Assembly: GCA_050872785.1 (NCBI GenBank)
Contig: JBNMHO010000002.1
Coordinates: forward strand, 72,165 to 136,164
From: Clostridia bacterium
GTDB taxonomy: Bacteria; Bacillota; Clostridia; Christensenellales; UBA1242
DNA: 64,000 nt
Reading direction: 5' to 3'
Positions 5,600 through 41,987 of this stretch are shown piece by piece (within the stretch, counting starts at the first letter, position 1; each line of letters begins with the position of its first letter). Position numbers and translations under genes: made by a program. The notes below the pieces were generated by a model that saw only the letters and a program-made list of their open reading frames with translations, was not told the DNA's origin and searched no databases.

Positions 5600-5663
5600 T
5601 TGCTGAAATATGTATTATAAGCGGAAGATAGTAATTATCTTGGCTGAAAGAAATAAAACATAA

Positions 5664-6341: not shown

Positions 6342-6370
6342 TTGGTGATTTTTTGCATATATGATATAAT
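6342..6370 (+). promoter_or_regulatory. sigma-A type promoter candidate for the giant gene
   Basis: TTGGTG (6342-6347), a 17-nt spacer, then the extended -10 TGaTATAAT (6362-6370). It would give a leader of about 360 nt. Confidence 0.4.
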
Positions 6371-6736
6371 ACAATCGTTAGGAAATATCAGCATTTAGGC
6401 AATTATTATTTGACAAAAATACTAACAAAATTTCAAGTATTTTAACTTAATTTATTTCTTCAATTTTATCTTGAAATTCTCTTGCGTGAAGTGCTAAAAA
6501 ATATATTCAAAAATCTTATCTTTCTTGTGGCAAAAATCTATTCTCAAACGTTTGTGTTTCTGTTGATTTTTTCTTTATTGTTAGATTTTTGAAAATTGCA
6601 TGCAAATGGGCGATTATTTATGTTTTTTTGTTTTAAAAACTTATATTTTGCTTTGAGTTTGCCTACTTGCACTTTTGTGAGATAAAAAAAGAATATAAGA
6701 AATTTAATGAGTTAGAATACTAAGGAGGAAAGTTGA

Positions 6737-7365
6737 ATGGATAACTTTACGCCAAAGGGAAATGGACAAAATAATGTTCCTCAAAATGGGAATGTGAGAA
6801 ATGGGGCGCCTCAAAATGGTGACTCTCAGAATTTTGCACGCCCAAGTGTTCCTCAAGGGGGAGTGAATGGTAATATCCCTAGACAAGGAATGGGGATGAA
6901 TAATGTTTCTTCAAATGGAGTGCGACCTTCAAGCATGAATGGGCAAAATTCTTCCATGCAAAACGCTGTTAGGCAAAGTCCAAATGGGGTGACGCAAAAT
7001 AGACCTACTCCAAATGGAAATTTTGCAAATGGACAAAGAGTGAATGTTCCAAATGCTAATGGGCAAAATGTTACTCCTCAAAATTTTTCTCGCCCAAATG
7101 CTCATATGCAAAATGCAAATAGAACTTATCCAAATACACAAAACCAAAATGTGTCACGTGGACAGAATATAAATGGTGGGAATTTTGGTTCTCCTAATTT
7201 GAATACACAAAATCAAAACATGCCTCATGGACAAAATGCAAATGTTAATGGACAGACAAATGGACAAGGTTTAAATGGACAAAATTCAAATGTTCAAAAT
7301 ATAAATCCTGCTGGTGGAAGTGGCGGTGGAAATTCTGGAAATGGAAAAATTGCTGGTGGGGCTGG
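6737..7365 (+). other. N/Q/G/P-rich low-complexity N-terminal region (predicted cytoplasmic)
   Basis: About 205 aa are built from NGQN / PQN / NxQN-type degenerate repeats. The region ends in KKKFSKKFK immediately before the TM helix, which fits the positive-inside rule. Confidence 0.8.
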
Positions 7366-10300
7366 GAAGAAAAAGTTTTCCAAAAAGTTCAAAGGAATTC
7401 TTGTTGGTGTTATCTCGGCAATTATTATTGCAATTTCGGCGACTGTTGGAATTTTTGTTGCACCACATGGCGAGGGACAAAAGTGTAGAATAACTTTTGA
7501 AGATATGGGACCTTATGGTGCAAGAGATGCTGTTGAACTTAATGTTGGTGACAGATATGAAGCGCCAACGCTTGATGATATTTTGAGTGATGACGGGCAA
7601 GAAAATGTTTTGGTTAAGTTTAAGGGGTGGCTGAAATCTGACGGAACACCTTATGTTGCTGGAAATGTTAATGAAGATATTGTGTTGCATCCAGATTATG
7701 AATTGGGCGATGTGAAAGTAACCTTTGTGACGATAGATAGTTACAATGACACAAACTCTTACATATTCTTGGGTGAGATATTTACAAAATATTATGCAGA
7801 AAAAATTTCATTCGCTTCTTATCTTAACCTTTATCAAAGTTTAAAACTTTCTGACGGGGTTAGAGGAAATACTTACGCTGCGGAAACTGACTACATGAAA
7901 GAGTATGTGCTGGAAAGTGGTGTGAGCGGCGAAGCAAATTATTCGGCTAAAAATTATTCTGAATTTGCTGGAAAATTTTTGAATGTTAAAAATTTCTCTA
8001 TGGCTGGAAGTGATAACCTTTATTCGATAGAAGATGTTATCGACACGCCAAGCGGAAATAGAGTTGTTGTAGTAAATTTTGACGGAAAAGATGTTGAAAT
8101 AAAATATAATTCCAACTTGAAAAGTATTGAAAAACAATATACAAGTGGTGGAATTGCTGGTGAAACTTTTGAAAATGAAGAGACGGATAGAGTTTATAAG
8201 TTTGGGCAAGAAAATTATGTCCTTCCTTCTTATGCGGCTTTGAGGTCTGTTGACAGTTCAAAAGGTTTTGTGCTGAATAACCCACGTTATCACAGACTTG
8301 TGGGCTGGTCTTTCATTGCTCCAAAAATTATGACTGAAAGTGGTGAAATTGACAATCCTGACTTTGGAAAAGAGGGAACCTATTATAAGTTTAATGCTTC
8401 GGAACGTTTGAAACTTACAAGAGAGTTTTTGAAAGACGAAAATAGGCTTGAACTTTATGCTGTTTGGGACGAAGATGTAACTTCGCTTAATGTTTATTCC
8501 AACCCAAACCTCGCAAGCGTTGCAAGTATTTCAATGAATGCAACCCAAGGCAAGAGTGTTGGCGATTGGCTAGGTGACATTGTGTCAAGTCTTCAAAAGA
8601 GAGGAAGTGTGCTTGTCGGGTTTAATACAAGCCCAAGATATGACGGCAAAATTTTGAACCTTAACACATTCCTTGAAGGGGGATTAACAAGTCACGACAA
8701 CCCAGAAGAAACTAACCCATATTTGAGCGGCGTTGAAGTCAATCTTTATGCAGTTTATAGAAGGGTTGTTGAAAATACATATATAAAATTAAACGACCTT
8801 GACTTGAAAGTTTCTGGCGTGAATATTACGAAAGATAGTTTGAATATCAACTACAATTTGCAACAATCTGTGGGCGAAAGTTATGTTTACGACGCAAGCG
8901 GGGTTGAGGTGAGTTTTGACGAAGCGGAAAGAATGTTTGTTGTGAAAAACTTGATTGAAGGAACGACTTTCGACTTGCCAAACCTCTCAAGAAGCAACTA
9001 TTTGTTTGAAGGCTATAGAACAAAAAATAGACTTTATGCAATGGCTGAAACGTCAAGCAGTGTTCAAGTGAAAGTTCTTTTGGATGACATTCTATCTGAC
9101 GGGACTTTTGTCATAAACTCCAACTGGCGTGGCGTTGAAACAAGTTTTGCATTTGATTTGCAAAATGGACAAAAAGAAATCGTAACCGCGGTTTATGGAA
9201 CAAAACTTGTTGTGGATATAACAACTCAATCTGATGTGACTTCTGTTGTTGTTAGAAAATTTGTTGGGCTTGAACCAATTTTGACTTTTGAATTTGAAAA
9301 AGAAGGGTATAACTTCCTCGGGATGTCCAAAAATGCTGCTGGCGGGGAATATTTGGATGAAGTGCTTGGCGAATTTGTTTTGAATGACGAGTTCTTGAAT
9401 GTTCTTACAAGTGTTGACGGAATTAGGACTATTTTCGCTTGTTGGGAAATTAAGACTGTAACTGCAACATTCGTGTTGTCTGGCGGAACATTTGACAATG
9501 GCAGCGAAAGCGTGACTGGACGATATACACTCTCCACAACTTATGGTGGAAGTGTTGAACTTCCTAGCAAAGATTTAAGCAAATTTGTGCGGGAAGGATA
9601 TAATTTTGACGGCTGGTTCGATAATTCAAATTTAAGTGGCGAGGCTGTATGCGGATATGATGCGACTGACATTGTGCTTAAAAAAGATATAACTCTGTTT
9701 GCAAAATGGGTGGAAATTAAGTTTGCGACAATCTTTAGTGATTATAACAAAACAAAAAATGTGAAAATTGAAACGGATAGAAATGGCAACTTTGTTTTTG
9801 CGGGCAGTGAACTTGACGGCATGACATTTGTGGCAATAACTCAAACCCCAACTGGTGGAGAGAATATTGTCAAAGTGGGTGAAGTTGCGAGTGTTTCTTT
9901 GGGTGAAGAGTTTTACTGCGTTTGGAGAAAGGTTGTTTATCAAAATGGCGGAACTGCTGAAAACGGAGCAACGGGCGATGAAATTTCTGGCGGATATGTG
10001 ACTTATGGAGTTCCAATATCTCCAATTTCAAACGAATATACTTGCTCAAAATATTTCTACTTTGCTGGTTGGCAAATTGTAAATAAAAATGGAAGCATTG
10101 CAAGCGATTTTGTTCAACCTTCAACTGTGCTTGACGAAAGTTCAACGGGATATTCCATTTCAGACAGTTTGACGGCTGGCGGGGAAGCGAAGATTGTCCT
10201 TGTTGCAAACTGGCAAAGAAAAGATGTCAGAATTGAAATATATAGTGACGAAAATATGAGAGTTCTTGTTAAGTCAATAAAAGTTGATGTTAACAAGTTT

Positions 10301-13300
10301 GACAGCGTAACACTTTTGAGTGACGCAGCGGGCGATTTGGCTCTTTCAACTATAAACGGACGAGATATTGATTTTGTCAAAGACGATTTGCAAAATTCAA
10401 CTGCTTACTACTCAAACGGAAGTGAACTTAAAATTACAATTCCAAAAGATAGTCTTATCTATGAAGTGAACAATGTGTTTGTTTACAAACTTTGTGCAGT
10501 GACCAAGAAATATGCAACATTCTTTGAAGAAGAAAATGGAAGAAGTGTTAGAATTTCTGTCGGGACAGATTTTGAAGACGGAACAGACAGAACGGGCTAT
10601 GCAGAAAACGCTGGGCCAGCGGACAAAATTGCAAAAGAAGACGGAAGTTATGTTTATGATACAATTATCTCAAATGGCGTAAGAGGCAAGTTTGTGCTGA
10701 CAAGCGGCGAAGACGCTCCATTTGAATTTTCAAAAGAACATTACAACTTTGATAAATGGCAAAAAAGTGACGGCGTAAACTATGCTGTGGGCGAAAGCGT
10801 TAAGATATTGAGTGATGTGACATTTGTGGCTCAGTGGGTCAAAAAAGTTTATTCGCTTAACATAAAAGACACTGTTGGTGGAAACTATGCAGGGCAAGAC
10901 GGAGTGAAAACTGTTAAGTTTGTTTATGGGCAAACTATTGACTTAAGTGACGTGTTGTATGATTTGAATACTCGTTTTGATGATGAGGCTTCAAGAAATG
11001 TCAAATTGGCAAAAAATATCCTTTATAACGGTGTGAATTTTGCTCTTTCAGACAAACTTCTTATGGAATATAGCGAGTTTGGACTTGAGGGAATTTTGCT
11101 TGAGGGTGAACTTGATGACGGCGTTGTTGAAATGACCATTACATGGGAAGAAATGACATATCAAATTGTCGTTGACCTAAACGGCGGAAGTTGGAATGAA
11201 GATGTTGAACTTTCTGAAAATGCAACTTTGCAAAATGGAAAAATTGTTTACACAGTGACATTCGCTCAAGCGGAAAACTTGAAAATTTTGTATGAGGGAA
11301 TAGAAAAACAAGGCTACACATTCTCGTCTTTCTTAAACGGAAGAAATGGCAATGTAACAAAGACTTCTGACGGATATTTCTATGCTGCGACAAGTGAATA
11401 TAATGTGTTTGACGGCGACAACATTTTGGCAACTTATGATGAAAGTTTTTCTGTTGTGTTTGACTTAAGCGGAGCAGACGAATTGGCGGAAGTTGCGACA
11501 ATCACTCAAAATGTAAACTTTGTGACTGTTGGAACAGAAAGTGACGGAGACTGGATTGAAATTACTTTGCCAGCGGCGGGTGACAGAGGTGAAGGATTTG
11601 AATTTGCTGGCTGGTGGAAAAATAACAATGCAACTGACGCAACAAATAATCTTTCAATAATTCAAAATTCCTTTGGCGAAGGGAATACACTCAAAATTAC
11701 AAGAGAAGATTTAAACTCCTACAATCTACTTGGCAAAAATGAAGTTGTGCTTTATGCTGTTTGGAAAGCAAAAGTTACATTTGTGGCGGGAAGGAAATTT
11801 GCTGACGGCTTTATAACTGGGGCAACTAACGCTCAAGGTGAAGCTGCTTTGATAGACATTGATTACAATTCAAACGGTCAAACAATTTCTGTAAAGGGTT
11901 TTGAAGATTGGGTTGTATGTGGCGAAATTGATGCAAATACTCTTGGAAAATATAAATTTGAACACGCAAACGGATTTGGCTTTGTGTTCGGCGGCTGGAA
12001 TGAAAACGGAAAGAGGGTTTTCTCACTTGATGTTTCCGCTCCAACAATACTTGTTGCTGAATGGGCAAGTGCAAAAATTACAATCACTCTTAGAGATCAA
12101 GACGGCAAGTCTTTTGCCCAGTCGGGGTTGACAACTGAAGAAGTTGTTATTGAAAGAGATTTTTCGACAGGCGATTTCTTAGACTTAAATAACATATACA
12201 GAACTTTTGTTGCTGCGGGCAAAACCACAACACCATATCTCTTTGGTCACAATTTTGTTGGCTGGGTTGAGGGAAGTGTCGGCATGACAAACTGGACAAG
12301 TGCAACAAGCAAAACTATCTACACTTCAAGCAATCTTCTTGCAATGCCACTTCAAGATAGCGTTTATTGTGCTGTGTTTGAAAAGGCAGATGTTGAAATT
12401 GTGGCAGATATGAACACAGAAGACGAAAGAGGGGATAGACCATTTGTTAATGATATTATTGAAACTTTCTACGGAAAATTTGGCGAACTTTACACTGTTG
12501 ATGTAAGTGACAAAAATCAATATTCTGCTCACCCATATTTTGAAATAATTTCTTGGAAAGCAAATAAAAATGGTAGCACTTTTGAAACGACATTTATGCT
12601 TGACGCAAGTGTTGTGGAATATGACGCTCAACTTAACAAATATGTGGCAAACATTGTAGCAACTTGGACAAGAAAAACAAGCACCATTGTTATAAATGTG
12701 AATGGTGGAACCATTGCAAGTGGCTACTTCAATAGTGACAGCGGCTTTGCAAATAATCTTATAAAAGTTGAATATACAACAAGACAAATTATCATTACTC
12801 AATATGTTTCAAATGACAGTTTCTTGACACTTCCAACTGCGGAAAATATTTCAAGAGAGATGTTTGTTTTGAATGGATATAATGTTGACAATGGAAAAGA
12901 CGTTTTGACCCTTGCTGGCGGAAACAAAGTTTGGAACACAGAAAGTGGCAGAATTGTTATAACTGCAAACTGGCTTGCTGTTGCAAATGTCAATGTTTAT
13001 GAAAATGCTGGGAATGAAGTTGAAAAACAAATTTCTTTCCAAGTTGTTCTTGGTGAAGGAAATGGAATTCAATTTGACGAACTTGGAAATGAAGTGTTAA
13101 TTTATAGAGCGGGTAGCGTTGAAAAACGAGTATCTTTCGCAATATTTGCAAAAACAAGTTATGAAATTTTGGGCTTCTCACTTTATAGGTCGAGTGGTGT
13201 AAATTATCAATTTGACACACTTTATTCTTTGAACAACGTTTCCACGCTTAGCATTTACACTGTTTGGGTTGGAAAAGAATATTCAATTTCAATTTATGCC

Positions 13301-37300: not shown

Positions 37301-40300
37301 TTGAATGTCGTTGGCGGCTCAATTTCTGGAAATATTGCAGACTGTGGCGGCGGAGTGTATCTTGACGGCACACTTGTAATGAATGATGGAAACATTAACA
37401 GCAACCAATCATATTGGGGTGCAGGACTTTATGTAAATAGCACGACAGCAACCCTCTCTGGTGGCTTAATCAGCAACAATGTGACAGTTCATGAAGTTGA
37501 AGGAGTTGCAGTGACTGGTGGTGACGGTGGCGGCGTGTATGTTGCAGAAGGAAAGACATTTACCCTTGGAAATGATAAGAATCCATCAGAAACAAGCACA
37601 ACGTCAATTTCAAACAACCAGGCTCTAAGAGGCGGTGGAGTGTTCGTTGCGGGACAAGATTCAGAATTCACTTTGCAAAACGCAACATTGTCAGAAAACA
37701 CTGCTATCCTTGGCGGCGGCGTGTATGTTGGACATAGTATCATAAAGGAAATTATAGACGGAAAAGAAGGAACGCCAAACTACTACCCAGCAAAATTTGT
37801 GATTGATGCTGGAAAAATCTCAAGCAACACGGCAAAAATACCAGAGCAAAAAGACGAAAATAAAGACAAGATTGCTGAAATTATCAAACTTGAAAAGTAT
37901 AGTGTTCCAAAAGGTGGCGGCATTTATTGCGAGGGAACGCTTGAAATGCATAGCGCAACAATAGAGAACAACACTGCTTCGCAAGAAGTAGGTGTCGGCG
38001 GGCTTGGTGGCGGATTGTATTTCGACAATGGAGAAATTCAAGCGGGTGACGACACTCAATCTGGAATAAGTGATGAGAGATTTAGTCTTACAATTGATGG
38101 CTCCTTTGGCAAAAACTCAACATTCACTGGAAACAAAGCAGCCCATGGCGGTGCTATTGAAATTCAATCTAAACAAGGCGTTAATAACATAAAAATTTCA
38201 AACACAACCTTTGACGGAAATACTGCAAGTGTCAATGGTGGTGCTGTGGATGTTCGTGGCAGTGCAATCTTCGCTAATTGCGAGTTCTACAACAACTCAG
38301 CAACAGCCGACGGCGGTGCAATGTATGTTAGAAGGCGTGAAAATACCGAAGACAATTCAGTTGAAATAAAAGACAGCTTTTTCGGTGATGAAGGCGAAGG
38401 CAATACAGCCGCAAAAGGTGGTGCAATTTATGTTTGCGGAAAAGTTATAGACGAAAAGTCTTGTGGACCAAATGTCACACTTTTACGAGTTACAATGTGT
38501 TACAACGGAATTTCCACAGAGCCAACTCGTATAGCTGCTGAATATGGCGGAGCGATGTATATTGAGAACTCAAATGTTTCATTTGTTAAAGGAAAGGAAG
38601 AGGGGGCAAGTACAATCTCTAACGCTGCAACTACAAATGGAAAGGAGAATGAAATCTCACACAACTCAGCCACAAAAGGCGGTGCAATAGCCATGAACGG
38701 TGGAACACTTAATATTTCCGCAAGCACAGCCTTCACTGCAAACAACGCAACAAACGGCGGCGCATTGTATGTCACCTCTGGTGATGTAACTCTTGCCAGT
38801 GGAATATTCGGCGGCGAGGCTTACCAGTCTATTGATGATAAGCATGATCTAAAATCTCTTATAAATGAACATAAAGAAGCATTATCCGATAGAACTAAAA
38901 CTGAGCCATATGCACCAAAAACTGACACAAGCAACACTGCAACAGACGGCGGTGCAATTTATGTGGCGGGTGGCTCGGTTACTATTGCTGAAAATGTGCA
39001 AATTGAGGGTAACCATGCAGAAAACGGCGGCGGTGTGTATATTGCGAATGGCGAACTATATATTAAAGCCGCAAAACCAACTAAAGAAGAAAACAAAAAT
39101 ATTCCTGCTAGCAACATAACGGGCAACTACGCAACAAGCGGCGGTGGTGTGTATGTTGGTGGCGGTATCCTTTCAGTAGGCTTTGACGGTGACGGAGGCT
39201 TGAACCTTGCCTCCTCAGGATATATCTTTGGCAACATCGCAACAAACGGCGGCGCAGTGTACATCTCAGGCGGCTCGGCAAACCTAATCAACGGCAGCAT
39301 AAAAAACAACTGTGCATTTAAGTTAGGTGGTGGTGTGTATATAAATGGCAGTGATGATACTATTCTTACAATGAATAATTTTGAGATATCTGAAAACTAT
39401 GCTCAAAGTGGGGGTGGTATTTGCGTGGCTGGAGCAAAAGTTACAATTAATAATGGCGGAAAAATTAGCGAAAATTCCGCACTAGATATTGGCAACATTA
39501 TTGCTTCTGATGATTTCACAAGAGGTGTTGGCGGTGGTATTTCTATCAGCGGTGGAACTATGATACTTAACGGTTCTGCAATCAACAACAATTTTGCAGA
39601 TAACATGGGCGGCGGAATATACGCATCTAGTGGAACTATTACACAATCTGAAAAAGAAGGTGCAAACACAGATACTCTTAGAATGGGTGGCAACCATGCA
39701 ACAAATTATGGTGGCGCAATTGCAATACCAAGTGGTGGTGGCCATGTTACATTAAGTAACTTTATAATTGGTGGAATTAAGTTTGACACAAAAATAAATG
39801 ATAACATTCTTTACGCCACGAGTGGTTCAGTTAATGGCAGAAGTGTTTCTGGCTTTGATGAGAATCAGATACAGAATATTAAATCTGCTCTTAGCGAAAA
39901 CAGAGTGCAATGGGCAAACTATGCAACATTTGGCGGTGCTGTGTATGTTGCAGGTGGAACATTTAATGTAGCTGCAAAGAGCAGCGGAGATACAAGCATT
40001 GTCCAAGGCTTTGGTGCAAACACTCAAATTGAGGGTAATTTAGGTCAATTTACCGTTGGTGCAGGTAACATTGCTTCGTCTGGCGGTGCATTGTTTGTGG
40101 CTGGTGGCGATGTTATTCTAAATGGCGGCAACTTTGCTTATAACTATGCAGTAGGCAAGGTGAATGATGGAAACCAAGGCAATAAGGAGCTTAAGGACTT
40201 TGTTGACAAAAATCTATACGAAGTAAAAACCGGTGAAAAGGACGAGAAAAGCATTATTGATTATTGGGGTGGCGGTGCCATTTGCCAAGTAAAAGGAACG

Positions 40301-41929
40301 TTGATACTTAACGGTGCACAAATTCAAAACAATGAAACAAATGGTTTTGGTGGTGCAGTCCTAACATTCTCAAGCCGTAAGGTGTCGAAATTAGATGATG
40401 TTGGCACAAACTTCTCAAAATTCACAATCAAAGGTGGGACTAAAATATCCAACAACTTTGGCACGCAAAAAGTTCAAGTACTTAACAACGTTGCCTCTGG
40501 TACACTTGGTCACGTAGGTGATAGTAAATATGGAGATGGGGTAAATAGATTGGCAAGCACAGACGGCATCGTAAGCATTAACAGCATTGTTTACTTTGAG
40601 GGTGGCGAGGTTTACGGCAAGATGACCCCAGCAACCGAAGACCCAAGTAAGGAAGAACCAGATAGTGCAGCGGATAGTTTGTCATTATATCTGCTTGGCA
40701 CGGCGTTTGAGAATTCAAGCGTAACGTCATTTGCAAACAACGATGCGGATGCATTTATTGATGGCATGGAACTAGATGAAAGTGCAACAAACAGTTCAAA
40801 TGCTAATGATAGGAACAAAGAATACTTAAAAGATAAGTATAAAGAGCATTATATTTTCAAGGCGTCTAGCGGAACTTTGCCAGTGTTCAAAAACAATATT
40901 ATTATTGGAAAATATGATGATGAAAACACTTGGTGTAACACCTGTGGCAACACAAGAAAGGTTGATTGTGGCCCGCAACATCAAGCCACAGTTACAATTA
41001 CGGGAAAATGTAGTGAATGTGGCGGAACGGGAAATTATGAAGATGCTGAGGGTGAAACAAAAGATTGTCCATACTGCGACGGGACTGGCATAAGTACTTA
41101 TGAGAAGACTTGTCCACGTTGTGACGGCACAGGAGATGTTGCCTGTCCAGATTGTGCTTCAAGACAACCTTATATTCACATTGATACACACACAAACTGG
41201 GGACAACTTTGCAGTATTCAATATCTCAACAACCTTCCAGTTGACTTCTTAAAAGACTATTCAGAAAGACATTATGCCTATGGCTATTCAGACGGGCTCC
41301 TGTCTTGGGCTAATGGAAAGGCGACAGATAGTCGTAAAGTTCAACGACCAAATATTATCATAAGTTACTTTGAATTAAGAGAAAACGCAAATCTGGAAAA
41401 TAATGGCAGACGAATTACGGACAACTGCGAATATGTATCACATCAAAAAGGCATTTGGCGGGTACTCCAACTTAAAGCAAAGAAAAAACCAAATGCAGGG
41501 CTGGACAGTGAAAGTAAGGATGCGTTAGGATTAACTGGCACATTCTTTGAAGGATTTTTTGATCTTATCTCTTGGCTTGATAAAAACCCAGCAATGAGTG
41601 GCATTGCTTCCAAATTCGGCGGTGTAACAAAGCTGGCAGAAACAATAAACGCCTTTGCTTCCATAGATTATAGTGCAGGCTTGCAGGGTGCTCTGTATGG
41701 ACAATCTGATACAATTGCAAAATGGAAAGAATACTTAAGGACGGATTGGAGCGGTGATTTTGTTGATGTTGGTCCACTTATTGAAGCAATTATTCAAGGA
41801 GCTGGTGAGATAATTACAGTTGTTTATCCTCCAGCAAAGCCAGTTGTGGATGCAATAAAATATGGCTACGAGCTGTTGAAAGGCGGTGTTAACTTAATTT
41901 TGAAGCTCAAATATGTTTCACTTAAATAG
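6737..41929 (+). CDS. giant (11,730 aa) membrane-anchored, repeat-rich surface protein (adhesin-like)
   Basis: Uninterrupted 35,193-nt ORF. RBS GGAGG (6724-6728) lies 8 nt before the ATG, and an intrinsic terminator follows the stop. The translation shows Flg_new-type repeats (GYxFxGW...LYAxW), Pmp-type FxxN/GGA[IVL] beta-helix repeats, BspA-type LRRs and a C-terminal CxxCxGxG zinc finger. Confidence 0.92.
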   Translation: MDNFTPKGNGQNNVPQNGNVRNGAPQNGDSQNFARPSVPQGGVNGNIPRQGMGMNNVSSNGVRPSSMNGQNSSMQNAVRQSPNGVTQNRPTPNGNFANGQRVNVPNANGQNVTPQNFSRPNAHMQNANRTYPNTQNQNVSRGQNINGGNFGSPNLNTQNQNMPHGQNANVNGQTNGQGLNGQNSNVQNINPAGGSGGGNSGNGKIAGGAGKKKFSKKFKGILVGVISAIIIAISATVGIFVAPHGEGQKCRITFEDMGPYGARDAVELNVGDRYEAPTLDDILSDDGQENVLVKFKGWLKSDGTPYVAGNVNEDIVLHPDYELGDVKVTFVTIDSYNDTNSYIFLGEIFTKYYAEKISFASYLNLYQSLKLSDGVRGNTYAAETDYMKEYVLESGVSGEANYSAKNYSEFAGKFLNVKNFSMAGSDNLYSIEDVIDTPSGNRVVVVNFDGKDVEIKYNSNLKSIEKQYTSGGIAGETFENEETDRVYKFGQENYVLPSYAALRSVDSSKGFVLNNPRYHRLVGWSFIAPKIMTESGEIDNPDFGKEGTYYKFNASERLKLTREFLKDENRLELYAVWDEDVTSLNVYSNPNLASVASISMNATQGKSVGDWLGDIVSSLQKRGSVLVGFNTSPRYDGKILNLNTFLEGGLTSHDNPEETNPYLSGVEVNLYAVYRRVVENTYIKLNDLDLKVSGVNITKDSLNINYNLQQSVGESYVYDASGVEVSFDEAERMFVVKNLIEGTTFDLPNLSRSNYLFEGYRTKNRLYAMAETSSSVQVKVLLDDILSDGTFVINSNWRGVETSFAFDLQNGQKEIVTAVYGTKLVVDITTQSDVTSVVVRKFVGLEPILTFEFEKEGYNFLGMSKNAAGGEYLDEVLGEFVLNDEFLNVLTSVDGIRTIFACWEIKTVTATFVLSGGTFDNGSESVTGRYTLSTTYGGSVELPSKDLSKFVREGYNFDGWFDNSNLSGEAVCGYDATDIVLKKDITLFAKWVEIKFATIFSDYNKTKNVKIETDRNGNFVFAGSELDGMTFVAITQTPTGGENIVKVGEVASVSLGEEFYCVWRKVVYQNGGTAENGATGDEISGGYVTYGVPISPISNEYTCSKYFYFAGWQIVNKNGSIASDFVQPSTVLDESSTGYSISDSLTAGGEAKIVLVANWQRKDVRIEIYSDENMRVLVKSIKVDVNKFDSVTLLSDAAGDLALSTINGRDIDFVKDDLQNSTAYYSNGSELKITIPKDSLIYEVNNVFVYKLCAVTKKYATFFEEENGRSVRISVGTDFEDGTDRTGYAENAGPADKIAKEDGSYVYDTIISNGVRGKFVLTSGEDAPFEFSKEHYNFDKWQKSDGVNYAVGESVKILSDVTFVAQWVKKVYSLNIKDTVGGNYAGQDGVKTVKFVYGQTIDLSDVLYDLNTRFDDEASRNVKLAKNILYNGVNFALSDKLLMEYSEFGLEGILLEGELDDGVVEMTITWEEMTYQIVVDLNGGSWNEDVELSENATLQNGKIVYTVTFAQAENLKILYEGIEKQGYTFSSFLNGRNGNVTKTSDGYFYAATSEYNVFDGDNILATYDESFSVVFDLSGADELAEVATITQNVNFVTVGTESDGDWIEITLPAAGDRGEGFEFAGWWKNNNATDATNNLSIIQNSFGEGNTLKITREDLNSYNLLGKNEVVLYAVWKAKVTFVAGRKFADGFITGATNAQGEAALIDIDYNSNGQTISVKGFEDWVVCGEIDANTLGKYKFEHANGFGFVFGGWNENGKRVFSLDVSAPTILVAEWASAKITITLRDQDGKSFAQSGLTTEEVVIERDFSTGDFLDLNNIYRTFVAAGKTTTPYLFGHNFVGWVEGSVGMTNWTSATSKTIYTSSNLLAMPLQDSVYCAVFEKADVEIVADMNTEDERGDRPFVNDIIETFYGKFGELYTVDVSDKNQYSAHPYFEIISWKANKNGSTFETTFMLDASVVEYDAQLNKYVANIVATWTRKTSTIVINVNGGTIASGYFNSDSGFANNLIKVEYTTRQIIITQYVSNDSFLTLPTAENISREMFVLNGYNVDNGKDVLTLAGGNKVWNTESGRIVITANWLAVANVNVYENAGNEVEKQISFQVVLGEGNGIQFDELGNEVLIYRAGSVEKRVSFAIFAKTSYEILGFSLYRSSGVNYQFDTLYSLNNVSTLSIYTVWVGKEYSISIYANDPELSPAENSSNVTVLSEGFRYGENVDMSKFFLKASSTGGWVFESFEIEGLVFDGQTTTFNPEVQDIGYKTNYDFTTNWKGKEIKVTYNFGNATFTDTDGQSGSEIVKTYTYSKRFGENGTMVKTLTPSESTTTCVRFEDEGAEHPLYAFSSFVSLDENVEVVNGEFELPAKDITLVAKWQSREIKLVVEPTGAAIGEDKDAKFDSLENTSGFKVSKGIRAGKDVLLVEELLIGDKVDLATLPKAVCSGEQYAYVFLRNYAGEGVCEEGNRSYIENTVFEVSKNSSVNFDIIWNAESEAFELWFTLLWSPTDVTVTYVQSLPVVNAPTITDASGDEVLDETSNTVYGYNNRATGYITDAAKYQTLEVNKLGEIGHTERNSETGESEFVLGFSLLEGYNLFGWKQIGWTTERDHSKVDGNYTKLNNKNSYFFSPTGDQNGTTNLLAFEKKTSAVKLYPIWEQEDYVLSLKDQTSKNFDGQKDFVVKYDSVFSVQKLLEDGGITLVTTAFDTTEKVFKNFANWVYNDKTFASETSLVFSKDFGGFINSDDLSDTNRTVTLNMGWEEVQYRLKLNLYFGDYSDKANVYFYRDADGSCYILTDNVVKFSELKTDGILLSNLKSLLLDETKLSKTVGDNVYSFAGWALTTREDGNILEPTKMLSLAGEKLVINEDTFGIGSEANLEEELLAYLNPETATIELTAMWNCYKLVINANEGTLTDTTSSKLWDGESDGQGNAWTADADGNICLWTYYGANIVLNEKILSWFARENYSAETKTFIHFVPQLDADGNVVRDEFDEIVYDTERLSVKDSTCDFVVVTNDNLFVEWIGNQVEIVVSPNSKTNDVEGNFDSASYAQFEAAYRELFSEVDSLLDASRSHKVETTAETINGVSVTILRLAANYGDQIDCFNLLLASSNGGNTFYGWTDGYLNYSTVPFVAKDNDSNRLYGLWSAVAMFELNGGRYGQSSSAKEVIDPVAPEGSDGKINLPKKMLINEGGSPYDAGPRKVGYEFVGWSDNAGGYKTYSEYVAKWKNLYIEEYIKSLTTQTEEEKNTIKNQLVKEVVRDHEVYVERFKTLMGEEYVTNLLATSFKVYDENKEYTLTGDVTFYALWRQVKVTVTFFKSIDDYKNGAGNGTDSMATYDIWYGETWTLPTKYDTSDYATKIFGWTHSTDGKQDAFAGWNVYNATSEMKLSSGETVELTSDKFFANLMDGDSVRKNVHLVTIWESVSVTVKIKLGPSSEDYAYYGESAGQDYGYLETLVEGDSKYLIISNPFSSFYYPNLDRIVRFGKVAKGYVEPYGYASSKAIVSNTKNIRATTLHIAKTGESRYIGEVREVNGNYVYELEVVWAEAECFIDNYFNVNTNIGHKFYESLQDALEDVADKDNDTFETRQANIMLLDKVSLEGDTTKYHYIKNTVNIGLRKVVVDIYNKSAKNIVLRRQTTGVAVIVGENGLFAIRNTTDNLSFNIEGEGKSGDVFVKVESGAFEITGRIEVTNFNNTLSSKGSLVWAVGGSVTLDGVSFSGNMLSGTNSSLFGGVICAESGCSVSISNGEFKNNSVVGTFSDENLSTYGGAVAVLSKSTLTINSVKFLQNISRVGNKGRSFGGAIYASGSEVSYYSCYVTDTDDNGNPKQGKNDISFRENSAMFGGAIAVVGGLDGTTLVKSTLQLSGLIDEAAGKTWTVMMYHNFTDGEGESGNDIYAVDANVDVTAMASLCEEAKGNGAGIFAGSNTDATIKTSIFSTTYAQNGSAIYFRGNSLTVSDSVFSQNVATSGNVVDGDGGAIYVEGAIAQTAVVVLTGNVISYTWAKRGGAIYVGENVNFSLSGKEGELSSIEKTYAELGGAIYYGSTYEAESQINYVSFKTSIYLEDADGQKIYPKNGGGIYVADGNLVVANSSFTFCRADNGGAVYIKKGKITFKNTNTFEKLNDVSSGVIEENPNLEGSEENALAARYVGNNASFGGGLYIEEEGEFDFQSGGLGYNTATATASAIYNYGKVRLGDVTLEENNSTTYIAILNQGSVEIYGNAFIADGQRIFLGTYLSETVKIVDGKKETVTERKFHEITISKENWLNKKADSEEVNHVEIDFVTKNAVMNKPVVQFASVMENGEENKSKLYNAYKQYLQDGNEEIFTLTQSASFVLRCDDEKFALVLALHSYDILFMDLSKDSDGKVIASKTIKCGDPLSDETLASINSIKPTNLRYGYTFVGWAYYNEYPVASETYSDFEGLGVRYSFKDDEKSVDVYSQILSGEGKFNYIENLKNVRSEAGNEFKFPAHNFYLYAVWKPNEYDVEFVYEPLGHINTTINNQEFSSNLGMMNVLKKKVGYGLSFNLPLASEVNKTLFVTYDDVTNVERDASNVPQRVTLSSGESVTNFELETSGLYAGSYFYTKQIAFGESVFELKFYVGENEDRAWSVFMNDTDLSSPKVTLRNSLNIDGEEQKVDPNVYPEKVTFEKDGNNVSYETSVDEDGRYFFVDAESGRKYVSRQLIRLDGYEFSNYKINGNLGYGAGDLFRMDESNPDFSDLGRKITVTVMFKRLTVKLILNNNDSQEGSVTAEKDVYPGTEILLPTMYDFGEFENIGRRENYSLVGFSKNKNYAADGQGVLYAPGDRYVVTESSTGVHELYAIWEEAECFVQPTNSTKETEKWFYSSLSKAFEDVSSNVYGTTYSQFNIVILKQNVEVKSELVVLADVILSAKAGEVTLKLSDDFAEGKAMFVVGGTSVSGDYTKAKLTIDGKSGTNLVISQGTVKNRSESLIVVNPNSVLNILGYTRFENATVTSENRGGMITVFGQMGDEGALYGVVNISGTGVVFSGNSSTNGGAIYVGSYGILNAEADDKDGISFGKTKDEYKENTASGNGGAIFAQENAQITLKNVWFKENAASVGGAVYISADCKSNISDCTFSGNIATGSSLGGGAIYSQADLKLSATTFMEFDSNNSLGNGGAVFASGVLTFVGNPTFTKNTAKTSGGAIFAPQGLVFDGGYFENNVASEGFGGAVYVKNILQKTTRNETLTVTFKSNKATYAGAIAIIDLQQNTSLDNLYFDSNEYVNEGGAIYVENAAPNFMLTLGKTVNISGSKALGGNAQYQRGGAAYVKNGNLLFEGTADGNAAVSGGAFYLEGLSRLVLNGARVQNSSAESDGGAIYVGGSSYIQFTGDNTVLSSNLALRGGAMFVNSSNVNTVIKNVTFDANSLSETSMFGEVLYISGNSQVTMQGNIGLVVASTDSHQVYVGKNGTLTLINAKFVNSENVEISSKTTIESEIRGTSVSHGKIVMDEKSYITDIYFSPISKDKLSANIQILTVSGNMSSTMENRERIVIHLYDVATDAKIENLHMVKFDSSDLARFAEEYFELDEETKKFVLAGSGSYLDIIKMAEDITIDPNGGEITYNGTTYTEPFKIQLDDSDDNTLKFLDNLSGFRAGYKLQNYFDGYVDGEATGSRRMNAQTIKPYKQVTLKAVWEQRSYAYKSYYQNEKSEYIEVGGGNIMFTDRIYLTAPARQYLTCIGWKVFYVDATTSNFVPLIDKVMGLKDSFSLNRMGETVEETKSKLKLVEENGGTVCFVAQYEETMVEIIFDGNGGTSKSGETMVKMSIPQSREYLTYASLLDTFSKADYAVNGIFTGDNNIYHENVDTMYDFSNPSICIKDLTKLTLHCNWQKVEAVIIKNNVSAGEINRINYETVGEAIKNLLDGDTLEIVSSRIELKSALVFNKAISITVTASKPVTLTRATSLSSYMIRVENGQVTFDSNNSTITLDGNNDGSTDGAIYVASGATLVAGDVLVVANQNVTNNGAAIANNGRLILVGAKILNSSTKGNGGAIWNNGSLLVTDVTIENCSATNGGAIWTSGTAEIAGGTFDQNSATMGASVYVGNKVDGTGEGIVVHSATFQNGNMATYASKTLDEVKTYGGAIYVAEGVQRVVVGVSTQIIGNKATYGGGIYYVGDKVAPAVSNISFEAGCVLSENSAVYGGAICFGPVEDNFNNHVVRIISADIRSNTATYGGGIAVLKGTLEIYGGNVGKNICSELGQNIYVSLGGKLSVYGGTIGSTDTSGSEIVIEGNSLEDLSGKMELAGGGDIYDTVRLKGGAKINVKSDITSSKVISVAIENYPAGTDEVIIATFDDNLDSDATKFEVESSQRDNYRTRTSGQDVVITRAMFSLIIDPDGGVLSSDIAGIRQYGTRYVADVMFGTNLSSLLANTKAARDRREFAYWGIVNGETVTQLALDTTMPYGDLQIKAVYTQILFVLTLDFNDMGGLSKTKAEFNVQNLQNENFRNFKIDNGSVSVEVFVTGEGSNAKQTLAALASRLSRFGYMLSGFDLTAGNSFGINLDASNFEMSAEDTTVYAIWTANSYEVTFHSNPYEGEEETKTISVNYDENFTLLGIDDIALDGYILSGWAISRDGNGKTYKLGENLLMNKDMTQSLNFYAIWSAKQYTVVYESELTEATGNVEDTVMTYGEEGELSSSKFTALGYTQIGWKTADGTEYLFANSLTVKNLTTEDKVSVYAVWQGNEYIVALHVANDETSRTKEIKATYGDSTKNLPDISEIVDTYSRLTMYFVGWTTVPNGKTEDVEYSNCQVIYNFTTEDRIELYPVFVKYSLNILSNNGEDKVLAFEPDNQGVITVSKQDLISFALVGHEIGFLSRTKEVSLGASNINFDEQGYITISTSVFTKPVFELFVAWKSLPYVLQFEVEGGNGEYPTSTIYVSPTGTNTYAEGATSCVLPQDMETPEILHGWSMLPDASVVNFELGASLALTQDFVAEFAKYQDISLGILKLYGVRETEYSIVYNLNTTRTIIGASATDIVGENQNETAKFEIGTESNILFADINGNVWEIADTRDENDQYFAYFAGWAYSPSATTPDIRQSYENPNEATTKFAGTVTLYAVWEEYSNPFIFTYLDSKIVGLSEEGQTLENANIILPEHKLYKVGTSVVVGETITGISGLLTAGQIQSLNFKFVTDGFEIEPFAFENTNNLLGLNNLKQNQVFGFGAFVNETLKDITFEESDNIAMFVASDGNIYSTDGTSASLFAVLISNMGGEANYAVAQSANYNGTNYNINSVLPFAFAKTTFETISIPQTISSLKEGSLSYIENLSSIIVPFVGGGSAEDGAARASSLKYLFVDRYGEVVIPAGLVQVNIQNDKLDNFGDYAFEGFAKLERIFFGANIKTFGAYAFSDCANLIELGTSGLFDISNITNIGSYAFQNCVNIPKSIDLSNVQTFGERVFDGSGLQSVVLSGTTENFGENKTFEELTTLVEARLYSIAAFEAVVNGTGITASDIEEDRKGVVYTNINFYQRIVKTAEWQKYLRYNIVVDNLIDVLSSTNELISYHSSLEDAVANAQNGNKIVVKSDINLKSTITIDKQISIYAGYEKLDSEDRGGITFTRKSDETAFIVESNGNVTFGGNFVEGDDATYVNAELDIVGSKRESADSLIKVNGGVVGFNLGLKIYDHISQNGSVVYATGGTISVTGSEIYNNYAVTSGGVFYISSQATLNIFRANIHDNGMFDGEVMTKSGGVVFAQDGSVVNISDKETQIVNNGAQNGGAIYIDCEDVTSTISAGLFSGNMATMSGGVVLLNAGKLDITGEVEFYGNSAKNMGGAIAVVGGTLCVNKGVKIGSSEANMGNSAAIGGGVAINGGGLVADNVTISSNNATTGGNVYISSDKTSSITSSEIILGNNGGSIDFGTDVLGGGIFVDGAKVNIKNSSIKENKAFAGGAIYITENNGLASEVTLTSGELLNNEADMGGAIFVKNGKVVATSVDIAENNAKDGAAIYVSNGEVTLKAGKISNNTATENGGGLSINGGTVNIIESTILSDNRATENGGNIYYSDGSLVINVATIEKGTANFGGGLYLERNALGVEKEADVKILSAKFTENVANSGGAIYTNLVLSIDKAELSGNTASEFGGAIYVGDRARVVLDEVSSSENISNAENAEKFANIYISKDASEHALSISNNTVLGEAEKSNGVYLPKGKIIDVVALTLGSEGETSMRKNRIRLHLERSPLDKSEWQDDKGIYVALYADTKYATTGVSKFVSEGVCFTRMGAKIYATIATVVDVTDRGKPINYASLKDATEQSTTEGRNYIFEIFHDQKIDGNNFVQVGNKQNITITRQKDADAKIYRDANYTGVMFEILGKLSLNFDKDNSEFSGSVLQPLDIFGSDESGENSQSVEATSAMFRVVSSGTLNIYEAVTIQNGSNLLGYGGAVSVENEYATLNMYNGTIANCNALYGGAIAVIKGNANILGGILENNTSNLGGAIYSAGTIVVGTDSTTTLMANNIAQGVSGFGGAIYTVDGSMATINSVTFTSNIASKGGAIYAEGTLNISNSRFSQNRASKGGAIYDTGLMSIVGGNFSENGSTEEQDCEFGGAIYIARSKSDAVAIEGVSFNNNSAHSGGAIYVEKGEITIRNTSETSGSITGNSATYGAGLYVGAGNVTIISYNISSNVAEGDLVSNGGGVYIAGGNVTISNSQITDNSAMFGGGIYFVSGSLSIYGGAISNNHAEASSALTQTYGGGIAQLGGSLKLAAYTEEGGASSNVTISGNDADFGAGLYLVAREGGSAEISNTEISGNTARVTAGGLAVKGVNTTIINTKILKNTSGNDESGKERVGQDVWFGGESYLVFGSQVTLGENKEKDRPTIYVAGESIFKNSSTPTVSDNKALIFNTEFDYSTLYQEIYLHHEKNYLGNYVDTFFVALGSDVIQDIITLHVDEGVPYETKVVYVGATYAEKALAKFTIPVDSDYTLKQGSGASQDYLVLAPQSYQVVDEEGNIRYITEKLQDAIDKANAHKNSKNEQLMVVINEKEVVITEAVQIGVTQSSESGSVIDTVYIAARKSTVISRNGYGGNVFNIGRYADVKIGTNCMEDFAGVIEGFKTAFGGTIPTITFSGDIKSSGNVAGVDAFIRNSGSLTLGENVTLENNTLKATGTGAVNDGGAVVVTNGGTLNVRGSVFIGNSATGSGGAIYVENGSMLNFESGTIKGNTAFVSGGGILIDNSTATISGGTITDNAANYLGGGVAVRNGGTLEITGDVEISYNKATNGGGIALFGKGSITTSSSADGKKVQIKENVAILSGGGVFAASSPETVDGKLSIVAELKLTGVDIQGNEAQKFGGGISLTTTNQNTNERNVTFDNILKDDKGNRIVGIKATIGLSEDSGSVTISGNKAKYTVNTRLKNTAAYTSYGLGGGLYALDAKVDILNTTISANETSFEQNYTDTSGNSHHEEIGGYGGGVYASYSAISVKDSIISANIAMKNGGGFYVTEGAEVTFSNCDNATQIAQNKAQYGGGIYIHNPGGKAKVQIASIIVGGVGKENIAAKGDGIYVDASRDFVALLITTTNGSTTLSDNIAISDHVYLAPHTNAETGNRDDAIIYVDKHCSSGASIKIALDEDQKDRGHIVAKYDCSDAEKWADERMFVTDDLVSPYCFIAKGENIVVGIKIVLRENVNDGAIRFFESLESAFAYVTSGNWNFVLLEDLDEMPSIDNFAVGEQITVNNGVTATLCSGRITGDGHEWEAITEEKDGLSRKVVKMSKELTSSIFKVYGSLTTTGVIFDGTGSNAGIAILGSAEESNGSFALGSNTLVKNFNNIAVEAKAGEVKVQGATIENNTATVIQISEEAILTMTDSTITNNKMASGDSVVSVASNKENKIENCVFTDNSATDGGAVLNKGSLTISGGKFANNSATNGGAVANENDGTLTITTSTSGSADETATSSDAADIMFENNSAKDNGGAIYSNSGTVKISGVTFSGNTTKELSSNGGTIAVVNTTVTISDTTIQKSYTLGSNGLTSAKANNGGGLYAEGSSVTLNGGNTFEDNNATNGGAMYLKNSSITPNTSEGKDNLITGNVATNGGGLYIVTNSTEDKPMNLSGLSIISNIANDGNGGGVYVASGAIKLTGGSVNGNKAKADVRTTDKMKDVSTGFGGGVYVASGATLIIDADSSEIITGNTALYGGGVYTAGTTTLTKGVIRGNVATTASANTEGTTTSFKNSKEARGGGVFVKGILNVVGGSISGNIADCGGGVYLDGTLVMNDGNINSNQSYWGAGLYVNSTTATLSGGLISNNVTVHEVEGVAVTGGDGGGVYVAEGKTFTLGNDKNPSETSTTSISNNQALRGGGVFVAGQDSEFTLQNATLSENTAILGGGVYVGHSIIKEIIDGKEGTPNYYPAKFVIDAGKISSNTAKIPEQKDENKDKIAEIIKLEKYSVPKGGGIYCEGTLEMHSATIENNTASQEVGVGGLGGGLYFDNGEIQAGDDTQSGISDERFSLTIDGSFGKNSTFTGNKAAHGGAIEIQSKQGVNNIKISNTTFDGNTASVNGGAVDVRGSAIFANCEFYNNSATADGGAMYVRRRENTEDNSVEIKDSFFGDEGEGNTAAKGGAIYVCGKVIDEKSCGPNVTLLRVTMCYNGISTEPTRIAAEYGGAMYIENSNVSFVKGKEEGASTISNAATTNGKENEISHNSATKGGAIAMNGGTLNISASTAFTANNATNGGALYVTSGDVTLASGIFGGEAYQSIDDKHDLKSLINEHKEALSDRTKTEPYAPKTDTSNTATDGGAIYVAGGSVTIAENVQIEGNHAENGGGVYIANGELYIKAAKPTKEENKNIPASNITGNYATSGGGVYVGGGILSVGFDGDGGLNLASSGYIFGNIATNGGAVYISGGSANLINGSIKNNCAFKLGGGVYINGSDDTILTMNNFEISENYAQSGGGICVAGAKVTINNGGKISENSALDIGNIIASDDFTRGVGGGISISGGTMILNGSAINNNFADNMGGGIYASSGTITQSEKEGANTDTLRMGGNHATNYGGAIAIPSGGGHVTLSNFIIGGIKFDTKINDNILYATSGSVNGRSVSGFDENQIQNIKSALSENRVQWANYATFGGAVYVAGGTFNVAAKSSGDTSIVQGFGANTQIEGNLGQFTVGAGNIASSGGALFVAGGDVILNGGNFAYNYAVGKVNDGNQGNKELKDFVDKNLYEVKTGEKDEKSIIDYWGGGAICQVKGTLILNGAQIQNNETNGFGGAVLTFSSRKVSKLDDVGTNFSKFTIKGGTKISNNFGTQKVQVLNNVASGTLGHVGDSKYGDGVNRLASTDGIVSINSIVYFEGGEVYGKMTPATEDPSKEEPDSAADSLSLYLLGTAFENSSVTSFANNDADAFIDGMELDESATNSSNANDRNKEYLKDKYKEHYIFKASSGTLPVFKNNIIIGKYDDENTWCNTCGNTRKVDCGPQHQATVTITGKCSECGGTGNYEDAEGETKDCPYCDGTGISTYEKTCPRCDGTGDVACPDCASRQPYIHIDTHTNWGQLCSIQYLNNLPVDFLKDYSERHYAYGYSDGLLSWANGKATDSRKVQRPNIIISYFELRENANLENNGRRITDNCEYVSHQKGIWRVLQLKAKKKPNAGLDSESKDALGLTGTFFEGFFDLISWLDKNPAMSGIASKFGGVTKLAETINAFASIDYSAGLQGALYGQSDTIAKWKEYLRTDWSGDFVDVGPLIEAIIQGAGEIITVVYPPAKPVVDAIKYGYELLKGGVNLILKLKYVSLK
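7397..7462 (+). other. single TM helix (signal-anchor) of the giant protein
   Basis: ILVGVISAIIIAISATVGIFVA is preceded by a Lys cluster. There is no signal-peptidase-like N-terminus. Confidence 0.8.
7470..17340 (+). repeat. long array of degenerate Listeria-Bacteroides (Flg_new) type repeats
   Basis: Recurrent units of about 70-90 aa each end in W. Examples are REGYNFDGWFDNS...LFAKW, KVGYEFVGWSD, EGFEFAGWWKNN...LYAVW and GHNFVGWVEG. Confidence 0.75.
17341..40900 (+). repeat. seven Pmp-like right-handed beta-helix modules with interleaved Flg_new runs and one LRR block
   Basis: Approximate module boundaries are 17341-19755, 21181-23412, 24260-25745, 29216-31430, 31431-33570, 33571-35590 and 35591-40900. 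Each opens with a head motif (FYESLQDALEDV, FYSSLSKAFEDV, NYETVGEAIKNL, SYHSSLEDAVANA, NYASLKDATEQS, RYITEKLQDAIDKA, RFFESLESAFAYV). Each is then filled with FxxN...GGA[IV][YF] turns. Flg_new runs lie at 19756-21180, 23413-24259 and 25750-27957. Confidence 0.75.
27958..29215 (+). other. BspA-type leucine-rich repeat block inside the giant protein
   Basis: Repeats are of the form xFxxAFxxCxxLxxIxLPxxLxxIGxxAF. Examples are FGDYAFEGFAKLERIFFGANIKTFGAYAFSDCANLIEL and IGSYAFQNCVNIPKSIDLSNVQTFGERVFDGSGLQSVVL. Confidence 0.7.
40934..41155 (+). other. DnaJ-type cysteine-rich zinc-finger segment (aa ~11400-11473)
   Basis: CNTCGNT ... CSECGGTG ... CPYCDGTG ... CPRCDGTG ... CPDC. Three are exact CxxCxGxG motifs and two are partial CxxC motifs. 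Confidence 0.75.
41156..41926 (+). other. orphan C-terminal domain (~257 aa) of the giant protein
   Basis: Non-repetitive sequence with no LPXTG. The last ~120 aa are Gly/Ala-rich and amphipathic (GLTGTFFEGFFDLISWL...GIASKFGGVTKLAETINAFASIDYSAGLQGALYG...IEAIIQGAGEIITVVYPPAKPVVDAI). I recognise no family. Confidence 0.5.
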
Positions 41930-41953: not shown

Positions 41954-41987
41954 AAAAAAAGAAACCAATTTATTTGGTTTCTTTTTT
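41954..41987. terminator. bidirectional intrinsic terminator after the giant gene
   Basis: GAAACCAA (41961-41968) pairs with TTGGTTTC (41974-41981). An A-run lies upstream and TTTTTT downstream. Confidence 0.8.

Follow-up and report, generated by a model that had tools for sequence, protein, structure and literature searches.

The stretch of DNA analysed here, called the window throughout, comprises 64,000 nucleotides (nt) of contig JBNMHO010000002.1 from a Clostridia bacterium, and its coordinates are counted from its first letter. On the forward strand lies an ATG-started open reading frame (ORF), 6737..41929, of 11,730 codons plus a stop, whose translation contains no internal stops and whose product, of 1.26 MDa and isoelectric point (pI) 4.6, is predicted to form a fibre at the cell surface. 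Because an in-frame TGA (6734-6736) lies directly 5' of the ATG, position 6737 is the earliest possible start. The first-pass annotation, made from the letters alone, had argued that chance cannot explain a frame of 35,193 nt and that the frame is bracketed by a GGAGG ribosome binding site and a clean intrinsic terminator. The first two points hold: in random codons at the base composition of the window, 7.15% of which are stops, a frame of 11,730 codons stays open with a probability of about 10^-378, orthologues of the gene are open and under purifying selection (see below), and GGAGG is present at 6724-6728. The terminator-like hairpin, which starts 25 nt past the stop codon, is indeed clean in that 14 bp are followed by a T-run, but it is A/T-rich. 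The features of the gene and of its product (amino acids, aa) are the following, the boundaries of the Pmp modules being approximate to +/-50 aa.

6342..6370 (+): candidate promoter made of TTGGTG, a 17-nt spacer and TGaTATAAT (extended -10), from sequence reading and conservation
6724..6728 (+): Shine-Dalgarno sequence GGAGG, 8 nt before the ATG, identical in the related contig L004
6737..7381 (+), aa 1-215: N/Q/G-rich low-complexity tail, predicted cytoplasmic from its composition
7400..7465 (+), aa ~222-243: single predicted transmembrane (TM) helix (signal-anchor), Kyte-Doolittle 19-mer maximum 2.64
7466..17353 (+), aa 244-3539: membrane-proximal region plus stalk, ~23-27 divergent, predicted all-beta units of ~100 aa
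9464-9706 (+), aa 910-990: Flg_new above the cut-off, 42.9-46.6 bits against 27
17354..19486 (+), aa ~3540-4250: Pmp-repeat module 1, from self-similarity and Chlam_PMP / POMP_repeat
19487..21187 (+), aa ~4251-4817: spacer 2, Pfam-negative units of the GYTFVGW...LYAVW type, from motifs and self-similarity
21188..23176 (+), aa ~4818-5480: Pmp-repeat module 2, from Chlam_PMP / POMP_repeat, self-similarity and motifs
23177..24262 (+), aa ~5481-5842: spacer 3, from the self-similarity map and W motifs
24263..25726 (+), aa ~5843-6330: Pmp-repeat module 3, from Chlam_PMP / POMP_repeat and self-similarity
25727..27961 (+), aa ~6331-7075: spacer 4, more regular units of ~80 aa, from W motifs, one Flg_new and a weak TIGR02543 match
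26339-26545 (+), aa 6535-6603: Flg_new above the cut-off, within spacer 4, 30.9 bits against 27
27962..29206 (+), aa ~7076-7490: leucine-rich repeat (LRR) region, from Pfam LRR_5
28688-29032 (+), aa 7318-7432: LRR_5 of BspA type (PF13306), E 4e-22
29207..31216 (+), aa ~7491-8160: Pmp-repeat module 4, from Chlam_PMP and self-similarity
31409..33226 (+), aa ~8225-8830: Pmp-repeat module 5, from Chlam_PMP / POMP_repeat and self-similarity
33434..35416 (+), aa ~8900-9560: Pmp-repeat module 6, from Chlam_PMP / POMP_repeat and self-similarity
35594..40621 (+), aa ~9620-11295: Pmp-repeat module 7, the longest and the fastest-evolving
40919..41161 (+), aa 11395-11475: cysteine cluster resembling a DnaJ-type zinc finger, from motifs, family matches and conservation
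41162..41926 (+), aa 11476-11730 (~255 aa): lineage-restricted C-terminal domain, conserved and without family match
41955..41987 (+): terminator-like hairpin plus T-run, 14 bp with just 3 G-C pairs, between convergent genes

The -35 element of the candidate promoter agrees with the consensus at 3 of 6 positions, which is why it is absent from our consensus-scan listing. It falls inside a leader block of about 300 nt (~6300-6600) that is 97-100% identical to L004, against 80-90% in the adjoining intergenic DNA. If this is the promoter of the giant gene, a 5' untranslated region of about 365 nt is implied, and the conserved block could act in the regulation of the 35-kb transcript or in its processivity; the search of the 1.1-kb leader against Rfam gave no match. 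Inside the giant ORF, Tandem Repeats Finder detected a single tract (15 nt x2.9), located in the N/Q tail, and a blastn self-comparison of the DNA gave no off-diagonal match at E<=1e-5. The repeats are visible in the protein, where their median identity is 28% and the maximum is 39% over at least 100 aa. As DNA-level repeats are all but absent, repeat-driven collapse or chimerism of the assembly is unlikely. The G+C content of the gene, 38-43%, is near that of its flanks.

A comparison with related genomes, which the first-pass annotation had proposed, yields colinear and open orthologues in L004, L002 and P0001. The first of these, a metagenome contig (ERZ808245 NODE-232) found by scanning metagenome contigs, is colinear with positions 1..19736 of the window. 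It has the same ribosome binding site and start codon, and its frame is open through all 4,303 codons (aa 1-4303) with 96-97% aa identity; its sole indel removes 30 aa of the N/Q tail in frame. The ratio of nonsynonymous to synonymous divergence (dN/dS) has an overall value of 0.107, with 0.07-0.12 for the ectodomain and an almost neutral 0.83 for the N/Q tail; for the flanking BipA and enolase genes it is 0.012 and 0.028 at similar dS. At the other end of the gene, a scan of GTDB species representatives retrieved L002 (Christensenella sp. UBA7862, DLSM01000012.1), whose frame is open from the first base of the locus to the stop and is colinear with aa 8064-11730 (3,667 aa) at 84.6% identity. 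All 23 of its indels are in frame, and dN/dS is 0.25 overall, 0.09 for aa 8064-8563, 0.38 for aa 10064-11063 and 0.14-0.20 for the C-terminal domain. With the last 441 aa as query, exhaustive HMMER searching retrieved three further sequences, P0001, P0002 and P0003. P0001 is a fragment of 3,619 aa that takes up the whole of an 11-kb contig and is 44% identical to, and colinear with, aa ~8140-11730, while the other two are short C-terminal fragments. The contig that encodes P0002, L010, has the same downstream synteny as the window and a C-terminal domain that is 70% identical; a frameshift considered near its 3' end was rejected because the shift in frame falls at a scaffold gap, a run of Ns. 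In the parts that can be seen, the giant gene is intact in at least four related species, and the giant ORF is confirmed as a real coding gene.

Two further observations concern these comparisons. Along the alignment with L002, identity to aa 8064-11730 falls towards the 3' end from 96.5% to ~75-80% while dS climbs from 0.20 to 0.65, a gradient that may reflect recombination or differing histories of the proximal and distal parts. Neither the C-terminal 351 aa nor aa 200-1000 retrieved a homologue in word-seeded protein searches; the longest of the 105 matches to module 4 in the same database is 1,173 aa, so that very long proteins are seemingly not returned and the silence of this database on the N- and C-terminal queries is weak evidence.

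At its N-terminus the protein carries a tail of 215 aa that is rich in N (24%), G (16%) and Q (11%), has a pI of 12 and ends in KKKFSKKFK. It is followed by the sole strongly hydrophobic segment of the protein (aa ~222-243), about 22 residues long with a K-rich N-flank; a second hydropathy peak, at aa 5948-5967, is inside a Pmp module and beta-strand-like. The N/Q-rich tail and the single TM anchor of the first-pass annotation are both recovered here, and by the positive-inside rule the orientation would be N-in, with the tail inside and the acidic remainder (pI 4.6) outside. A classic cleavable N-terminal Sec signal of the Pmp type is not predicted, as the hydrophobic segment follows the 215-aa tail. 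In agreement with the earlier reading that the protein has no LPXTG motif and no obvious wall-binding module, LP.T[GAN] occurs nowhere in the protein, there is no hydrophobic segment near the C-terminus, and none of SLH, CWB2, LysM, SH3b and GW is among the Pfam and NCBIfam matches at E<=0.01 over the whole length. The autotransporter beta-barrel (PF03797) likewise gave no match in any piece of the protein, even at E<=10 for the last 730 aa.

The stalk units that follow the anchor end in LxAxW and often carry GxxFxGW; the tryptophans recur as GxxFxGW and then, 22-60 residues further on, LxAxW, with a modal period of ~100 aa. This part of the protein had been taken for about 3,300 aa of degenerate Listeria-Bacteroides (Flg_new) repeats, which is an overstatement. 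In the whole protein two units exceed the Pfam cut-off, one of them in spacer 4, and three more matches are weak (aa ~1609-1638, 1826-1868 and 3188-3212). At E<=0.1 Flg_new is matched by 4 of 31 motif-defined units and Flg_new_2 by 1 of 31, and at E<=1 Flg_new is matched by 3 of 21 naturally delimited units. Aligning Pfam-negative with Flg_new-like units in hhalign gave a probability of 0.5% and no alignment past the last 8 columns, and an iterative local hidden Markov model started from Flg_new seeds converged on just 6 short matches. An AlphaFold2 model of the Pfam-negative unit aa 1978-2079, with 20 paralogues as alignment, is all-beta and of low confidence (predicted local distance difference test, pLDDT, 63); the best PDB match of a structure search with this low-confidence model has an E-value of 0.66, and a PDB sequence search with the stalk gave no match. 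All that the other units have in common with the Flg_new-like ones is the GxxFxGW / LxAxW signature and the strand pattern. The stalk is best read as a series of small units rich in beta-strands, of which a few are Flg_new, and the remaining units are possibly very degenerate relatives of Flg_new.

Beyond the stalk, the self-similarity map resolves seven mutually similar blocks (~aa 3600-4250, 4900-5400, 5900-6300, 7600-8150, 8400-8800, 9000-9500 and 9800-11300), which correspond to the seven Pmp-repeat modules. For the Pfam scan the protein was cut into twelve ~1,000-aa pieces, and Chlam_PMP (PF02415) is above the cut-off in 6 of the 12 and just under it in a seventh (19.5 against 20.6 bits). 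E-values reach 3.8e-15 for Chlam_PMP and 3.2e-17 for POMP_repeat (TIGR01376), the latter with up to 61 bits. The tetrapeptide GGA[ILV] occurs 52 times, where 2.2 +/- 1.5 are expected, and the composite motif FxxN-x(3-9)-GG[AG][ILVM] 22 times, where 0.2 are expected. The two peptides that the first-pass annotation quoted as examples, FSGNSSTNGGAIYV (aa 4998) and FKENAASVGGAVYI (aa 5063), are found in module 2. Homologues of module 4 are Chlam_PMP/Beta_helix proteins, 22-39% identical, from many phyla, some of which also carry Flg_new or SLH. Of the seven beta-helix Pmp modules originally proposed, the number and the family stand, but the fold comes from family membership, which suggests that the modules are parallel-beta-helix-like. 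Module 7 evolves fastest (dN/dS up to 0.38 against UBA7862), as would be expected of an exposed surface. The proposed BspA-type LRR block between spacer 4 and module 4 is well supported by LRR_5 (78.9 bits against 27.7), and the region also gives weak PDB sequence matches to 4fs7 and TpLRR 6mlx.

The cysteine cluster contains 11 Cys residues, arranged as five CxxC motifs (three of them CxxCxGxG) plus one lone Cys. Against DnaJ_CXXCXGXG (PF00684) it scores 18.7 bits, below the Pfam cut-off of 32.7; in both PDB and NCBIfam it is matched best by DnaJ zinc fingers (PDB 2ctt, E 0.002). Used as a query it retrieves 12 proteins; of the 10 scanned, 9 have a DnaJ_CXXCXGXG match at E<=0.001, which in 4 cases exceeds the cut-off, so that the putative Cys-rich zinc finger of the first-pass annotation looks DnaJ-like by the proteins that it retrieves, though its own score is below threshold. 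The Pfam check that had been proposed at the outset recovers Chlam_PMP and LRR_5, finds Flg_new above its cut-off in two units only and leaves DnaJ_CXXCXGXG below the cut-off. All 11 Cys are conserved in L002 and also in P0001, whose C-terminal region has 38% identity.

The last ~255 aa have no family match in Pfam, NCBIfam or PHROGs; a PHROGs search with the N-proximal and C-terminal regions gave Cys-motif noise alone, and PDB sequence and profile searches with the stalk and the C-terminus yielded just the DnaJ finger and the LRR. The description of this region as an orphan domain is borne out, since it belongs to only three clusters among 1.84 billion representatives, each time at a C-terminus. 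Across four relatives it is 83%, 70%, 38% and 35% identical and colinear, with a dN/dS of 0.14-0.20. In an AlphaFold2 model of the C-terminal 435 aa built from 4 sequences the pLDDT is 39, too low for the model to be of use outside the Cys cluster, which alone reaches 62-80, and the final ~140 aa are predicted as amphipathic helices. The extreme end has a conserved KYV(S/R/K) motif, and neither a TM segment nor a sorting signal.

The giant gene is surrounded by housekeeping genes for BipA, enolase, SufBD, LeuRS and TilS. SpoIIE is also encoded in the window, which indicates that the host is a sporulating Firmicute with a cell wall, and the nearest named relative belongs to Christensenellales in the NCBI classification. 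A wall-less, Mollicutes-like host, which would explain the missing wall anchor, was considered and is ruled out by SpoIIE and by this relative. A Gut-1 RNA (RF01706; 62 bits against a gathering score of 50) lies on the reverse strand at 43355-43425, 1.4 kb downstream of the giant gene and beside tRNA-Glu and tRNA-Met genes; the Gut-1 motif is known from gut metagenomes only, which points to a gut habitat. Right after the terminator of the giant gene, between the convergent genes, an 11-nt tandem repeat, TTTGCTATATA x7.3 (98% matches), occupies 41985-42064, and the counterpart of this site in L002 consists of 61 N (L002 11139-11199). The convergent ORF itself, 42085-42966 (-), encodes 293 aa with an N-terminal TM anchor and keeps its position in L002 and L010. 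Upstream, an ORF of 305 aa, 3168-4085 (+), is conserved in L004 (86% identity, dN/dS 0.17); neither the 293-aa nor the 305-aa ORF has a match in Pfam or NCBIfam. Two paralogous small proteins are encoded at 43871-44890 (+) and 49789-50652 (+). They have Flg_new repeats and a common C-terminal half (TAGGGGG[KR]WVYS...), the first has a hydrophobic segment at its N-terminus, and both are possibly small surface proteins that belong to the repeat family seen in parts of the giant.

We think it likely that at this locus a sporulating Clostridia bacterium of the gut has a functional gene for a 1.26-MDa cell-surface fibre with a role in adhesion or aggregation. The sequence families, their conservation and the pattern of selection are established by the data; from the positive-inside rule and from the known roles of Pmp, BspA-LRR and Listeria-Bacteroides repeat proteins we infer a topology, an export route, a fold, a fibre geometry and a binding role as follows. 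The helix at aa 222-243 would act as an uncleaved signal-anchor: the basic, N/Q-rich tail of 215 aa would remain cytoplasmic, and the acidic rest of the chain, 11,490 aa, would be threaded outward by the Sec machinery. Small all-beta units, a few of them recognisable as Flg_new, would make up about 3,300 aa of membrane-proximal stalk through and beyond the wall. The distal two-thirds, in which the Pmp, spacer and BspA-type LRR families are identified, would be composed of seven solenoid-like modules, spacer units and one LRR block. The far end would present the DnaJ-type Cys cluster and the conserved, lineage-restricted, predicted helical domain. A fast-evolving distal solenoid and a constrained terminal domain fit an exposed shaft with a functionally constrained tip. 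The role in adhesion or aggregation, by binding to host, particle or partner-cell surfaces, is suggested by what Pmp repeats, BspA LRRs and Listeria-Bacteroides repeats do elsewhere.

Several points weigh against this picture of an anchored adhesive fibre. Most stalk units are not demonstrably Flg_new, and aa 4304-8063 are without a second copy among the sequences compared. Divergent wall-binding modules may lie within the unassigned regions, and signal peptidase may cleave the anchor, or proteolysis may divide the chain into smaller pieces. The C-terminal tip may do something other than bind, because the C-terminal domain cannot be modelled (pLDDT 39) and has no match of known function.

The first alternative, which we hold to be unlikely, is that the chain is a polyprotein cut after export into separate wall-associated or secreted proteins, so that there is no 1-MDa fibre. 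Spacers part the modules, each of which opens with a similar cap-like segment (x-Y/F-x-S-L-x-D/E-A), and processing has already been proposed for other giant proteins; however, there is no peptidase domain or recognisable cleavage motif in any piece, and the colinear module order kept at 44% identity fits a single functional chain, without proving one. A more specific version of the adhesive fibre is distinctly doubtful. In this version the Cys cluster and helical C-terminus would form a new distal docking module on an N-terminally tethered fibre of about a quarter of a micrometre, mediating specific contact with partner cells, for example in the aggregation of Christensenellales with methanogens (which are hydrogen-consuming), or with host glycans, and the prion-like N/Q tail would cluster or regulate the fibres from inside. 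It is very unlikely that the protein is a polymorphic toxin or contact-dependent effector whose repeat fibre delivers the C-terminal Cys-rich/helical domain to neighbouring cells. A long repeat filament ending in a small and very narrowly distributed domain is indeed the layout of polymorphic toxins, and the amphipathic helices predicted for the last ~140 aa would suit such a domain, but the C-terminus is conserved and colinear in the four relatives, at the identities and dN/dS given above, and not swapped. The gene is, moreover, followed by a terminator and a convergent gene, an arrangement kept in L002 and L010, with no co-oriented immunity gene, and Pfam, NCBIfam and PHROGs detect no toxin, peptidase or pre-toxin domain. 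An assembly artefact, or a decaying relic still open by chance, can almost be dismissed: the window and all its relatives are metagenome-derived, aa 4304-8063 have no second copy and the frame of L010 changes near its 3' end, yet an accidental open frame has a probability of about 10^-378, no DNA-level repeats are able to collapse, the same colinear open frame is found in three independent assemblies with a dN/dS of 0.07-0.38 and in-frame indels only, and the change in L010 coincides with a scaffold gap.

Few bacterial proteins are longer than 10,000 residues, and hardly any from gut anaerobes have been studied. Here the gene takes up 35 kb of a small genome, and purifying selection keeps it intact in species whose protein sequences diverge by up to 56%; this cost together with the selection makes it likely that the giant protein matters for life in the gut. 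It would offer a tractable case for how a Gram-positive cell exports and folds more than 11,000 residues behind one N-terminal anchor, for the ligands of Pmp-type modules outside Chlamydia, and for such fibres as a possible basis of the co-aggregation and co-occurrence reported for Christensenellales.

Several parts of the protein can be compared with known systems. Chlamydial Pmps are type V autotransporters, adhesins with a beta-helical passenger domain. The present protein has in common with them the repeated GGA(I/L/V) and FxxN motifs and matches to Chlam_PMP and TIGR01376, whereas it has no beta-barrel, no outer membrane and no predicted cleavable N-terminal signal, its host is a Firmicute, and it carries seven modules per chain at ~10x the length of a Pmp; its sequence argues that it is not a Pmp autotransporter. 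The LRR_5 block is common to BspA-type LRR proteins (Tannerella BspA, Treponema LrrA/TpLRR), but these are dedicated LRR proteins, while here the block is mid-chain and makes up ~1-4% of the protein. The CxxCxGxG motifs are those of the DnaJ cysteine-rich domain, which has four CxxC where the present cluster has five; here the cluster would lie outside the cell, where the surface fibre ends, without a J-domain or chaperone context. Among Gram-positive giants, Ebh is anchored by a C-terminal TM segment and others by LPXTG. Ebh of S. aureus, Embp of S. epidermidis, Giant1-5 of Apilactobacillus kunkeei and a 7,651-aa adhesin of Mobiluncus mulieris are, like the protein predicted here, megadalton-sized, repeat-built and elongated, with adhesion or aggregation implicated. 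Their repeats form alpha-helical rods in Ebh, Embp and Giant1-3 and are immunoglobulin-like in Mobiluncus, in contrast to the putative all-beta units and Pmp modules here. The A. kunkeei giants combine a beta-solenoid domain with a long rod (PMC12863079; see also PMC10619420 and PMC9302970), as we propose here, although according to PMC12863079 their solenoid is N-terminal and their anchor an SH3b-like C-terminal domain, whereas here the predicted anchor is an N-terminal TM helix. The combination had been called essentially uncharacterised, which holds experimentally, but its class is already in a giant-gene survey (West-Roberts et al. 2023, 10.1101/2023.11.21.568195). According to this survey, Clostridia of mammalian guts have genes for proteins between 10,000 and 30,000 aa long; these contain Listeria-Bacteroides repeats, LRRs and ShdA/autotransporter-adhesin-like repeats and were read as binding proteins. 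The present protein agrees with them in its Clostridia host, gut origin, length above 10,000 aa and adhesion-type repeat content; the survey class is descriptive, not a homology family, and comes with no per-protein anatomy. The giant protein is a new example of a recognised class and not a new principle, and its N/Q tail with an N-terminal anchor, its seven Pmp modules and its Cys-cluster/helical C-terminus are described here and not in the survey.

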